NCBI RefSeq assembly: GCF_053078305.1
Contig: NZ_CP166879.1
Length of the DNA stretch: 64,000 nucleotides
Reading direction: 5' to 3' (one strand)
The stretch's first letter is position 1. The number at the start of each line of letters is the position of its first letter. The position numbers were made by a program. Shown here one piece after another: positions 3,001-42,000 of this stretch.

Positions 3001-6000
3001 CAGGAAGCATAAAACTGCCAGATGGAACCATAGCTCAAGTCTCGTCCCCGCAGCAGGTTATTTCTGGGGGACAGCAGCCTCCGAGTCAAAAAAATCTCTG
3101 ATGAGCAGATTGCCGTATCAGGGAAATGTATCCAGAAATTGGTGACGCAGTGGCTTCGCTGATCCGTAAAAATGACTATCTCCAGTCGCGTGTTCGGTGT
3201 GTGAGGAGTTGTTAGGGTGCATGAACTGGATTTTTCAGGGAAGCCGCTGAGGCCTGGCAGAATGCAGCCCGGCTGGCCCCCTGTGAAGCATGGCGGGATT
3301 TTGCCCTGAAGAGGGCATCTGCATGCCGGTGTAAGTGCCGATAAAAATAACCCCCGTCGCGGAGCTCCGGGGGATCAGGCTTATATGGCAGATCGTTATT
3401 ATTATAGTGGTGTAAGAAGGAGTTGCCCTGTCTTTCAAACGGACATCACAGAGTTAACATATTTCACATCCCGGGTAAGCCAGCAGGGATAAAAAATGTG
3501 ATGAATTTCAAGAAGCAGGAGGTGACAGTGGCATGCATAACAGTATGGTTATGTCCGGTGAATCTGACAGACAGCCGGGCAGTATTCGCGGCAGGATCGA
3601 GTAGGAGGCGGGATCAGTGGTCGACGGGTTCTTTCATTTTTGGCATTGGCAAAAAATGTTATCAGATACATACCGAATATATTGAAAACCTTGTCTCGAA
3701 TGTTTACCGAGATCGATACCAATAAGCGCAACGTTTTGCATGATGGTACCCTCTAAAATAACCCCCCTGTCAGCGTACCGCTAACAGGGGGGGACCATCT
3801 CATTACATCATATTGCTTCATGGTGCATCAGCGACCACAGGATGCCGCAAAAGCCGAAAAACGGACCAGAGCGCCTGAAATCATTCCTCGCCTCAGTATC
3901 TGTTGCCCATGGAGTGGCCGATAACAGACCATTGTCGGATGAGCCTTACCCCCCTTCCTTCCCGGTGGTATCCGGATGTGCTGCCAGCCTTCTCAGTTAA
4001 CCGATGTTTTCCGGGCTTTTCGCCATGCTGATGCCTGATAACGTATTCCTGGTCGTAAAACCCGTCAATATGCGCCGGGGCATCGACAAAACTGACACAG
4101 TACGTCCGGAAAGAACTTAACGCTGCATGGCACGACAATGCTGCCTTTGTCTTTACCAACAAGGCTCGTTCCCGCATAAAAGTTCTACGCCGGGATAAAC
4201 ATGGCGTATGGCTGCGTCAGGCCTTCACTACTTCACACCGGAAGTCTTCCACCCTGACACGAATATACCGTCCGGGCTCTTTCGCAGGTGCAAACAGTTT
4301 TTCACATTCGGCGAATGTCATTTCTGAATCCTGGTAACGCAACCACTGAACCGGCATATTACCGGGTTTGATTATTGTCGCAGTTATTTTATATCGTTTC
4401 CCCATATCGCCTCTCATCCTGACAACAAAATTACCGGCTGAGCCATCACTCCGGTAAAGCATGCGAAAAAAAGTGAGCGTCTCAGCAATGGCTCATGCGG
4501 TGATTCTGTACGGGCACCGATGGCACCTCAGAATACAACAAAGATATCAGCGCAACATGTCTCTCCCGTTATTTTTCAGAGTTCTTTACCCACCATCTGT
4601 CACATTGTCAACGCCGCAACCTTAACAGTATCCAGGCCAGTACATGCGCAATATCCCATGGAAACACAAACAGAAAGCCGCTGCTTCTTTTCACACGGCA
4701 AAGCGGGTTTTTCGGGCGATGGTTATGGCTGCAGAAGATGGTGTACTGCCGGAAGTCTCCGGGGCAGGAGACAACGGATACGGTAGCTGACCAGTGTTAT
4801 ACAAAGAGCGTCATTGAAGTGGCTGAACACAGTAAGCGATGAGATTGTTTACCTTTCGGTCATGACAAAAATGACTCCTGCAGTGATGGATAAACTTTGA
4901 GCAGGAAAAGTTTTTACGTCTGATTCTGGCGGAACGGGGGGATAAGAATATGAATAATGTGAAGTGAAACATTATTTTTTCTGTACGGGCTGGCTGCAGA
5001 TTTCTTTTTTTTCTGTGTTTTTGTTTTATTTTGTTGATTTTACTTGTTTTGATGATTGTTTTCATATTTCCCCGAATATATTACATTTTTTGTGCAGGAA
5101 TTTAAAATAAGTAATTTTACCTGATATTTTTAAATTAATTCATGTTTATGTAAATATATGAAAATATCACCATCTTTTGATGGTGATAAGGAAGGGTTCT
5201 GGAAAACATATTTCGCATTTAAGTATACAGCGTATTTGACTGAAAATAAATTTATTTTAGCTGAACAGTGATTAACGGGTTTGCATAATTATATGCGCGT
5301 TTTTATATACCTGTAAACAGGTAAAATAAAGGGATTATATTATGTCCGGATTTAAATTTAGTAAGATATGTAAAGCCGTATGTTTATATGCAGCGGTGTC
5401 CATGCCTGCTTTTTCCGCAGATGATGGCATTGCTGTTGTCACGGATGGTGACGGTACAAATATAGCCATTGGTGATAAAGCGGATAGCAGAAAGATGAAC
5501 GGTGACAACTCGATATCAATAGGTAAATCTTCCTCTATCGGCTATGGCAATAACAGCATTGCTGTCGGGACCTCTTCCTATGTAACCAGTAGTGATGCCA
5601 TAGCCATTGGTACGAACAGTCTTGCTAGGGCAAACGGAACGATTGTTATTGGTAAAAATGCCAAATCCGGCGGTGGTCAGGGGGTAGTTATCGGTGAGAT
5701 GTCAACGCCACGATGTTTGACCTACCGTCTTATATCACTGGCGCTGACAGAGGGGGCAACTAAGTTGCCTGGCATGTTTATGACAATAAAGAGTACCGTC
5801 ATGCATCATGGCGAACAGGAAATTACAGTGCCGTCTTACCGGGGCGATCAGCGCATGGTTGTGTCGTTTACCCTGGCTCATTATTACGTGTGCAGTAAGC
5901 CCCGGATATCAGGTCACTGAGTATATCTTTGAATGAGCGGTAAACCGGGGATGCGATCTGCTGCCCGGGAAAGTCGAACTGACTGGTCAATAGATATCAA

Positions 6001-39000: not shown

Positions 39001-42000
39001 TGCTTTATCTGCGATGCCTGCGCTACCAAATGGAGTCATATTTCGGGTTTCAGAGTAGTCAGCTGCCAGATACAGGTCATTATCATTATACTTGACCCCA
39101 ACACCTGCAAACTCCGCATGTTTTCCCCCGGCAATCCAGCGAGGCGTAATAACTTCTTTTCCTTCTGAATCTTTCGATGTCATGAAACGTTTACGGCCTT
39201 CTTTTTCCTGCAGACTGGTTCTGTCGGCATTAGTGTAAGCGGCAACGATTCCAAAACCTTCATAGTCATAGCTTACGGAGAAACCATATCCATCACCATT
39301 AGCTTCAAGTAAATTATCACGGTCATTTTTACCCTGATATTGAGCAGAAAAAGTAAGTCCATCAACAAGCCCGAAGAAATCTGTATTGCGCCAGGTCAGA
39401 ACTCCGGTTGTTCTGCCGGTCATATAGTTATCAGAGTAAGTCCAGCTGTCACCACCAAAGTCCGGAAGTACGTCAGTCAGAGCCCCCACATCATAGGCAA
39501 CACCATAGTTTCGCCCATAATCAAGTGAACCGAGTATATTGTGGCGAATACCTGCAAATGCCAGACGATTTTTATCGTTGCGTACTTCACTTTCTGTCTT
39601 AAACCCCAGGAACTGGTATTCCCACTGACCAAAGCCAGTCAGGCTCTCATTAATTTGTGTTTCGCCTTTGAAACCAGACGTGCAAATGTTCTGTCGCCAT
39701 CCATAGAACCATCAGAGATGTAATGACGGGCTTTAACGCGACCATAAAAATCCAGTTTATTACCGTCTTTATTATAGATTTCTGCTGCCTGTGTTGCCTC
39801 ACACAGCATTAATGCAGAAACGACAGAGCACACAACCATACTTAATTTTCGCATAAAAAAATCCCCTGTGCACATTTTTAGTATGGTTTTAAAAATTAAA
39901 CTATGGCGAAAAAATTATCACTATGCAAAGATGTAACAAAATATTGCTCAGTGATCTATGTTGTTGTTTTTATTTGAGGTTGTATATTTTCTAGTGTGTT
40001 TGACTTTTCTTTCTCAAGTGTTATTTCTTGACCTTTATCACAGAACCATCTCCCTGGATATCCCCATCACATTGCATGAAAAGCAAGTTTTACCAATCTT
40101 GATTTTCAGTGTTAAATAAGATTAATAACTGTAATTCTGCAAAAAAAAGAACACCATATGTAGTATGACTACGTATTCCACTCTGTTCGTTCACGGACTG
40201 GCATCGAAGTCTGAGGTGTACTGGCAATAGCGGATACAGTCATTTGTTCTTTTTTTAAGCATTCATCCGATGATACTTTTCCTGAATGCTACCGGAGTGG
40301 TATTCCCCTGCCGTGAGGGAGGGCGCTGACGGTTATAAAAATCCTGATATATACCCATTCCCGTATGACAGCGATGGCGTCACATCTCTGTTCTACCATC
40401 TTCACAGAAATATTTCGTTCATTAGCATTCCGGTATTCGTATAACCACCTTCGGTGGAGAAAGAATAAACAATCCCTGGAATGCGATGAGCGCTTGACCA
40501 GAAAAGCATCATATTGCTTCATGGCGCATCAGCGACCACAGGATGCCGCAAAAGCCGAAAAACGGACCAGAGCGCCTGCAATCATTCCTCGCCTCAGTAT
40601 CTGTTGCCCATGGAGTGGCCGATAACAGATCATTGTCGGATGAGCCTTATCCCCTTCCTTCCCGGTGGTATCCGGATGTGCTGCCAGCCTTCTCAGTTAA
40701 CCGATGTTTTCCGGGCTTTTTGCCATACTGAGGACTGATAACGTATTCCTGGTCGTAAAACCCGTCAATATGCGCCGGGGCATCGACAAAACTGACACAG
40801 TACGTCCGGAAAGAACTTAACGCTGCATGGCACGACAATGCTGCCTTTGTCTTTACCAACAAGGCTCGTTCCCGCATAAAAGTTCTACGCCGGGATAAAC
40901 ATGGCGTATGGCTGCGTCAGGCCTTCACTACTTCACACCGGAAGTCTTCCACCCTGACACGAATATACCGTCCGGGCTCTTTCGCAGGTGCAAACAGTTT
41001 TTCACATTCGGCGAATGTCATTTCTGAATCCTGGTAACGCAACCACTGAACCGGCATATTACCGGGTTTGATTATTGTCGCAGTTATTTTATATCGTTTC
41101 CCCATATCGCCTCTCATCCTGACAACAAAATTACCGGCTGAGCCATCACTCCGGTAAAGCATGCGAAAAAAAGTGAGCGTCTCAGCAATGGCTCATGCGA
41201 TGATTCTGTACGGGCACCGATGGCACCTCAGAATACAACAAAGATATCAGAGTAACATGTCTCTCTCGTTATTTTTCAGAGTTCTTGACACCCTCCTTCT
41301 GCCACATTGTCAACGCCAGTGGAGACTTCTGCTGTCAGTTTTTTCATCCATACAGAGTGACATTAATTATCCTGAACAAAACGAAATATCCTGAATATAT
41401 TTATTTTCTCCTGGTGCCGGAGACATGATGATGTACAGGCTCAGGTGCGGTGTGAATGTAAAATGGTATGTTAATTATTCATTTCTGAATGCAAACTGAA
41501 TGCAAACTTATTCCGAATTGAATTCTCCTGACACCACATGATAAAAATGAGGATATAATAAAATACTTCTCTTCTGGATGTGCCATTACCTGCCGTTGCT
41601 GTAATACGGCGGGTATTTTTTACTGACATATCGGGAAGCCAGCAGACGTTCGTAGCTACATCCCCGAAAGTGGCACACTGCAAACTATAATACGAGTAAA
41701 ACATCGATCACCGTAGCTGATGTGTTCAACGATCGTGCACTAGCGTTCTGCGATTCTCAGGGACTGCCTGTTCTGAGAATCGGCGAGTCCGCGATCGGAT
41801 ACGATGCGATTTCGCAGTGAGTCAGGGATTGCATCTGAAAACCCTCCGGCTATGTCGGTAAATATTTATTTCTATGAACCGTACGATTCAGATAGCATTC
41901 GCCCGACCCCGTAAGAATAATCTCCGGACAAATAAGATTTTTCCTGAAAAAGCGTCTAGTCTTTTGATATCGTTGTTTTTATGCTAATCAGGGAGTATGT

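Follow-up and report, generated by a model that had tools for sequence, protein, structure and literature searches.

A direct-repeat pair bracketing a secretion and adhesin block of a genomic island is probably an inert chimeric relic of island mosaicism

A pair of direct repeats, copy A and copy B, brackets a block of type I secretion system (T1SS), adhesin and heme-uptake genes of an Escherichia coli virulence island within the window, which is the whole 64,000-nucleotide stretch of contig NZ_CP166879.1 (NCBI RefSeq assembly GCF_053078305.1) that was analysed. The repeat is probably an inert chimeric relic, composed of insertion sequence (IS) debris joined to a small gene and its upstream region, which serves as a passive homology tract left by island mosaicism and is not a mobile element. 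The pair itself is real but ordinary, a by-product of that mosaicism.

The copies were recovered concordantly, as one direct pair, by MAFFT, a repeat finder and a self-BLAST of the window.

3806..4615, plus strand: repeat copy A, 810 bp (MAFFT, repeat finder, self-BLAST)
40507..41317, plus strand: repeat copy B, 811 bp (MAFFT, repeat finder, self-BLAST)
4035..4499 (40735-41199 in copy B), no strand: A/B identical tract, 465 bp, spanning the greater part of tnpB', DUF1187 and the proximal part of the region upstream of it

A direct pair in the same orientation at these positions had been reported in the original prediction and was borne out by the three methods, while the pairwise identity, estimated there at 96-97%, was slightly higher at 97.66% (19 differences over 812 aligned columns of the MAFFT alignment). 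The repeat starts are 36,701 bp apart and the similarity between the copies broke off sharply at both boundaries. Differences between the copies were clustered, with nine in 3824-4034, one at 4500 and nine in 4551-4600, and the 465-bp tract was the longest stretch of identity.

The earlier description of the repeat as a decayed IS66-like sequence holds for about half of it only, as IS66-family debris is present and the rest consists of an intact DUF1187 gene and the region upstream of it. In RefSeq, near-identical copies carry three annotated features: a tnpA of the IS66 family that is frameshifted and truncated at its N-terminus, a tnpB truncated at its C-terminus and, on the other strand, an intact DUF1187 gene. 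Homology to IS66 was detectable only at window 3829-4217, that is, in the left 410 bp or so of the repeat.

3806..4216, plus strand: IS66-family internal fragment of copy A, with tnpA' at about 3823-4038 and tnpB' at about 4025-4214 (relatives' annotation, tblastn)
40507..40916, plus strand: IS66-family internal fragment of copy B, with frameshifts more numerous than in copy A

Window 3829-4217 was 86.7% identical at the nucleotide level, in a local alignment, to the tnpA-tnpB pair located beside terW in EDL933 (O157:H7). The surviving parts identified by tblastn were TnpA residues 39-109 and TnpB residues 1-63, frameshifted, the TnpB portion being 88-90% identical; the resemblance of the small reading frames to TnpB, previously thought to be weak, is thus a strong one. 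A collection of 5,426 complete Escherichia coli genomes was searched, in which 646 records matched the repeat at 80-90% identity. The rows sampled from these records covered only repeat positions of about 24-412, and the records represent a tnpA-tnpB(-tnpC') element that in O157:H7 is found beside terW. Several IS66-family sequences were considered as the parent of the repeat and rejected. The intact IS66 element of strain Z1323MEC0001 (Z1323) did not match the repeat, another IS66 remnant in Z1323 matched at merely 71.6%, and the IS66-family element of the window itself (about 19-21.7 kb) had no similarity to the repeat in the self-BLAST.

The remaining part of the repeat, together with sequence adjoining copy A, is related to a locus of an integrative and conjugative element (ICE) in OkiPb01677.

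4217..4405, minus strand: intact DUF1187 gene of copy A, 62 aa (Pfam PF06688, E=6.7e-17)
40917..41105, minus strand: intact DUF1187 gene of copy B, encoding a protein identical to that of copy A
4406..4615, no strand: 5' upstream region of DUF1187 in copy A, about 210 bp, non-IS (no IS66 matches; homologous to the OkiPb01677 ICE locus)
4616..4668, no strand: ICE-type ancestral sequence past the right end of copy A, with no copy B counterpart (OkiPb01677 alignment)

The DUF1187 protein matched positions 1-58 of the 61 in the PF06688 profile, which was counted as a full-length family match, and matched NF007283 with E=5.5e-20, under the curated cut-off of that model. A sensitive search with 4218-4625 identified an 84%-identity relative of the non-IS half in OkiPb01677, where the DUF1187 gene sits among ICE genes, including those for TIGR03756 and TIGR03757 proteins and a conjugative ATPase, with no adjoining IS66 fragment. 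Homology to this locus started exactly at the DUF1187 stop codon, which is the end of the IS66 stub. Comparison with the ICE-borne homologue (locus L015, 4000-4188) gave a ratio of nonsynonymous to synonymous substitution rates (dN/dS) of about 0.10, a value that argues for DUF1187 being a real conserved small gene under purifying selection; its predicted origin is in an ICE backbone.

No terminal inverted repeats were found at the ends of the 810-bp unit (16-18 of 50 end positions matched, relative to 17.1 +/- 1.8 for shuffled sequence) and a target-site duplication was likewise missing, the flanking 10-mers being different (copy A CATCTCATTA/GCAACCTTAA, copy B ACCAGAAAAG/AGTGGAGACT). The unit contains no tnpC, its left end falls within tnpA, and on the right it ends in sequence that is not from an IS. 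Without IS ends, tnpC or a target duplication, the unit is therefore unable to transpose and is neither an IS nor a miniature IS. It is also not the arm of a composite transposon, which has functional outer IS ends and a cognate transposase, as the repeats have neither IS ends nor tnpC. An explanation in which the unit had been mobile, either as an IS66-derived miniature or through mobilisation in trans by the IS66-family element at about 19.2-21.7 kb, and had inserted twice is extremely unlikely. IS66-family sequence is contained in the unit and an intact IS66-family element does lie within the block, but that resident element is unrelated to the repeats at the nucleotide level, and the non-IS right end runs into ICE-type sequence in copy A. 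An exact 42-mer over the tnpB'/DUF1187 scar had no match in 100,044 species-representative genomes. Furthermore, full-length copies occurred in only two distinct flanking contexts, and the few others examined were IS-truncated forms of the copy B context.

The full repeat was present in 92 of the 5,426 genomes, with a median of one matching place per genome. The copy B context (sulfatase-porin-repeat-AraC, window 38507-43327) was intact in 85 genomes and also occurred in islands without the T1SS block, as in O22:H8 strain 154 where the order iha-btuB-sulfatase-porin-repeat-AraC is found near ssrA. Genomes scored with three matching places (JNEC-KY171, O22:H8 strain 154 and CFIAFB20190157) each had one B-context copy in the island region examined. 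The copy A context (window 1806-6625) was found in only four genomes, matching over its full length in Z1323 and from window 3318 on in JNEC-KY175 (KY175), SMBL and SI-NP020. Copy B was confirmed besides copy A in JNEC-KY175 and SI-NP020, and SMBL also matched the B region. Z1323 carried copy A with the block of T1SS, adhesin and trimeric autotransporter adhesin (TAA) genes and had no copy B, its island ending at tRNA-Phe. The interval genes occurred in many genomes without copy A, and the left neighbours of the T1SS block in genomes with copy B only were subAB (2012EL-2448) or ireA-YadA-OmpA (STEC1590, JNEC-KY171 and CFIAFB20190157).

Truncated copies of the B context were also observed. One was a porin-IS3-tnpB'-DUF1187 fragment on the IncFII plasmid p886Rt_hybrid, and another, on the S19-651 chromosome, is truncated by an IS600 that lies 215 bp inside the non-IS half, the distal genes of the island following immediately. 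IS-mediated rearrangement has a hotspot in the repeat region.

The bracketed segment had been put forward as a candidate unit of deletion or capture, which was not upheld in the collection. A synthetic query for the deletion junction (leftA-repeat-rightB) was covered to at least 80% in none of the genomes, and the best match, at 68%, consisted of one flank and the repeat. An empty A site, searched for as a synthetic fusion of leftA and rightA, was likewise absent, as only the four A-bearing genomes were recovered and the repeat was always in between. The reciprocal junction (leftB-repeat-rightA) was not found in the ranking of copy-A-context matches. No strain in the collection showed the block as a unit, a result of low power given four carriers of copy A, and the interval genes were often present where copy A was not.

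These searches also bear on a Campbell-type capture, in which a circular 36.7-kb module with one repeat would have integrated at a repeat already in the island and the reverse reaction would excise it. Direct repeats around a gene block fit this geometry, pieces of the block are found again beside other genes in further islands, and the copies demonstrably recombine (see below). However, neither the recipient configuration (leftA-repeat-rightB) nor the donor junction was found, leftB-repeat-rightB was contiguous without copy A in 85 genomes, and the interior of the block is itself a mosaic of two lineages and not one imported piece, so that a capture of this kind is unlikely. Annotating the bracketing repeat as the limit of a mobile or excisable unit should be avoided.

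The alleles of the two copies had different relatives. Window copy B was 100% identical to the copy of 2012EL-2448 and to the copies of 11 other genomes, while the nearest allele to window copy A in the allele matrix was that of Z1323 with 6 differences. Within genomes, copies A and B differed at 0 sites in SI-NP020, at 1 in JNEC-KY175 and at 19 in the window. Two independent lines, polarised sites and flank continuity, were used to examine the ancestry of copy A. At positions 3929, 4027 and 4034 (less securely 3824), the A copies of the window and Z1323 matched the O157 IS66 outgroup. The derived base at the polarised sites of the IS66 half was carried by all seven B-position alleles examined and by the A copies of KY175, SMBL and SI-NP020. 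For the flank, the OkiPb01677 ICE locus aligned to 4217-4668 on the A side and only to 40917-41305 on the B side, and past the end of the repeat it kept a similarity of about 80% to the A side over 53 bp. Since the ICE homology continues to 4668 at copy A and ends at 41305 at copy B, the right boundary is a breakpoint in copy B and the ancestral continuity has been kept by copy A. Both lines indicate that copy A probably retains the older state and that copy B is derived.

Nine differences fall within 50 bp at the right end of window copy B, beside the 465-bp identical tract, and this end looks like an imported patch rather than an accumulation of point mutations. A mosaic scan of the window against four references in 1-kb segments gave the following nearest relatives.

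1-6 kb and 12-24 kb: nearest Z1323, 99.4-100%
7-9 kb (7001-9000): nearest 2012EL-2448, 99.9-100%
24/25-42 kb: nearest 2012EL-2448, 99.5-100%

Window 29-43 kb was entirely missing from Z1323. The nearest relative therefore switches at about 24-25 kb, and because copies A and B fall in segments with different nearest relatives, the island is best read as a putative recombinant of an A-type (Z1323-like) and a B-type (2012EL-2448-like) island. The 2012EL-2448-like patch at 7001-9000 inside the Z1323-like left part suggests that exchange within the T1SS genes occurred more than once.

The allele and segment relationships argue that the divergence between the copies is between-lineage divergence and not decay in place. 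In the original prediction, the few percent of divergence was taken as a sign that a duplication was not very recent, which corresponds to an in-place duplication of 810 bp within the island with the 2.3% divergence as the time since. The copies do have identical boundaries, and the split is old because copy A retains ancestral states lost from every B allele; to that extent the statement that the duplication is not recent stands. The use of the divergence as an age does not, as window copy B is the 2012EL-2448 allele, copy A is nearest to Z1323, and the copies differ at only 0-1 sites in JNEC-KY175 and SI-NP020, so the divergence is not clock-like. Four of the 19 differences were private to the 2012EL-type B allele, and 8-9 more formed an 18%-divergent patch in 50 bp common to the O113, A12 and 2012EL alleles. 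An in-place duplication is also contradicted by the mosaic scan, which placed the copies in segments with different nearest relatives, and it is improbable on this evidence. The A/B divergence is unusable for dating a duplication.

Exchange between the copies was evident in other genomes. In the clade of JNEC-KY175, SMBL and SI-NP020, the copies at locus A bear B-type derived bases in the IS66 half, and in JNEC-KY175 and SI-NP020 the A copy matched the resident B copy completely or almost so. This clade shares its A flanks with Z1323 and the window, and locus A is therefore of single origin. A derived G at 4533 was common to the two copies in KY175 and likewise in SI-NP020, where both copies also had a private T at 4527. 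IS66 copies of 90-95% identity, which might have served as outside donors of these bases, were absent from the 5,426-genome collection. Accounting for the shared alleles takes a minimum of two gene conversions between the loci. Efficient homologous recombination needs an identical tract of tens of bp. Judged by their direct orientation, their 465-bp identical tract and the exchange footprints in sister genomes, the repeats are a working substrate for such recombination. A crossover between A and B would, from this geometry and the length of the tract, delete 36.7 kb, and no such product was observed. It would remove the T1SS adhesin module, both TAAs and the heme receptor in one step and could bear on how virulence genes vary between strains, although no such variant was found among the complete genomes. 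It is very unlikely that the pair is maintained, whether through a DUF1187 function for which dosage or position is important (the gene being intact, under purifying selection, the same in A and B and part of the invariant core) or as a recurrent recombination switch by which island lineages swap or shed the T1SS/adhesin/heme-uptake block with appreciable frequency in populations.

A history consistent with a passive relic would begin with the insertion of an IS66-family element immediately downstream of a DUF1187 gene in an ICE backbone. The element would later have been reduced to an internal tnpA'-tnpB' stub, giving the 810-bp unit of stub, DUF1187 and about 210 bp of upstream sequence. Of the two loci, A would have kept the older state with a flank continuous with ICE-type sequence, and B would be the derived one with a breakpoint at its right boundary. 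Locus B became the common one, fixed between the porin gene and the AraC regulator in an island family of E. coli that produce Shiga toxin (STEC). Recombination between islands would then have joined a left part of about 24 kb, mostly Z1323-like and carrying copy A, to a 2012EL-2448-like right part carrying copy B. Crossovers in the shared backbone of T1SS, adhesin, TAA and regulator genes would have left the diverged copies in direct orientation 36.7 kb apart, where they may serve only as passive homology for RecA-type recombination.

Several points weigh against this account. The polarisation depends on 3-4 sites in the IS66 half, and the right half was mixed when compared with the ICE outgroup, with 4553, 4566, the GA indel and 4587 making the A type ancestral and 4592 and 4595 the window-B type. 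The left boundary common to both copies is internal to tnpA, yet the left flanks at A and B are unrelated, which the proposed history leaves unexplained, and it does not reconstruct the event that first created the two loci. Z1323 may also have lost copy B secondarily, since its distal island is rearranged around an IS66 insertion, and an old two-copy island may therefore have lost copy A in most lineages. Finally, the source genome of the window lies outside the collection and just four comparators carry copy A, which gives little power to detect deletion products.

The arrangement resembles several known systems in part. The pgm locus of Yersinia pestis is flanked by IS100 and undergoes a spontaneous 102-kb deletion through recombination between direct IS copies. 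IS-containing direct repeats likewise bracket virulence and iron-uptake genes here, and homologous recombination would remove the block. In contrast to the intact, identical and active IS of pgm, with deletion at measurable frequency, the repeat is a dead 810-bp chimera, 2.3% divergent, with no deletion product in the 5,426 genomes. IS66-family elements consist of tnpA-tnpB-tnpC with terminal inverted repeats and generate 8-bp target duplications. The left 410 bp or so of the repeat share 86.7% identity with the O157:H7 tnpA-tnpB region, but the repeat comprises two frameshifted partial genes only and is without tnpC, inverted repeats or a target duplication. The tufA/tufB genes and the rrn operons of enterobacteria are dispersed duplicates that undergo concerted evolution by gene conversion. 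As in those systems, the repeat copies of a single genome can resemble each other more closely than they resemble their counterparts at the same locus in other genomes, and private mutations are found in both copies. They differ in that the repeat tract is mostly junk with one small gene and occurs in very few genomes, and in that homogenisation is patchy, being complete in SI-NP020 and JNEC-KY175 and slight or lacking in the window.

Mosaic islands of STEC negative for the enterocyte effacement locus (LEE), namely tRNA-Phe islands and those termed locus of proteolysis activity (LPA) and pathogenicity island that encodes subtilase (SE-PAI), and their modular reshuffling are already documented in passages of two reports (PMC7371111, PMC6455142). 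The same repertoire is described there, with an espI-type autotransporter, subAB in relatives and debris of IS66, IS110 and IS3 (PMC7371111, PMC6455142). The passages on related islands in these reports contain no description of the repeat pair or of its allele structure (PMC7371111, PMC6455142). The pair offers a small, clean example, in STEC islands of the tRNA-Phe/LPA type, of gene conversion between dispersed relics and of island assembly by inter-lineage recombination.

The content of the bracketed interval, earlier listed as a T1SS/adhesin module, both TAA genes, an ibrAB cluster, a heme receptor, a sulfatase and a porin pseudogene, was confirmed by NCBIfam models and the annotation of relatives. 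These features and those of the repeat flanks are located as follows.

4616..40506, no strand: interval between the copies, 35.9 kb, whose segments differ in nearest relative
5383..5699, plus strand: duplicated 5' fragment of the first TAA gene in the right flank of copy A, pairing with 17269-17585 at 98.7% identity
40263..40358, minus strand: possible C-terminal remnant of an IS3-family transposase, left flank of copy B, a weak match (NF033516, E=0.013, profile positions 347-369 of 369)

The interval includes a type I secretion set of TolC, LssB-type ABC and HlyD proteins, a 1614-aa adhesin and two YadA-type adhesins (the TAAs), as well as regulators, IbrA-like and IbrB-like genes, a TonB-dependent heme receptor, a sulfatase, IS debris, IS110 and an intact IS66-family element. 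The porin gene is without its N-terminal third, its match to the OmpC model being confined to positions 123-368. The intact IS66-family element, at about 19178-21706 between the two TAA genes (TnpA NF047595, TnpC NF033517), was missing from all four comparator islands, and its tnpC shared 94% identity with one in OkiPb01677. Perfect tandem repeats of 1002 bp lie within the large T1SS adhesin gene at 12477-14788, with three registers at 100%. The length of the gene varies widely among relatives, the product having 1614 aa here, some 2,600 aa in Z1323 and some 4,600 aa in JNEC-KY175.

The right flank of copy A contains IS110-family debris and the 5' fragment of the first TAA gene. This fragment (5383-5699) was present only in the four copy-A genomes, and with 17269-17585, which is the TAA gene itself, it forms a 317-bp direct repeat that brackets the T1SS and large adhesin genes (11.9 kb).

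The left flank of copy A is a patchwork that includes a 371-bp piece of IncF backbone (window 3227-3597). This piece was about 98% identical to many E. coli plasmid records, with 1,276 of the 2,219 places matched being plasmid-borne, and its counterpart adjoins the downstream side of finO in the one IncF plasmid examined, making it a stray fragment of plasmid backbone in a chromosomal island. An open reading frame at 3634-3741 in the same flank was considered as IS110 and rejected; it contains the motif IGIDLGK, but tblastn with two IS110-family transposases gave E values of at least 0.05 and NCBIfam gave nothing. A search of Rfam for structured RNA at or around copy A yielded one sub-threshold chance match, to a hairpin at 3744-3800 (TCV_H5, E=0.084). 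A strong G/C-clamped hairpin (CCCCCCTG...CAGGGGGG) is present at 3766-3797, directly left of the copy A boundary. A further pair of direct repeats, about 220 bp long and 86% identical, was located at 33422-33642 and 55077-55298.

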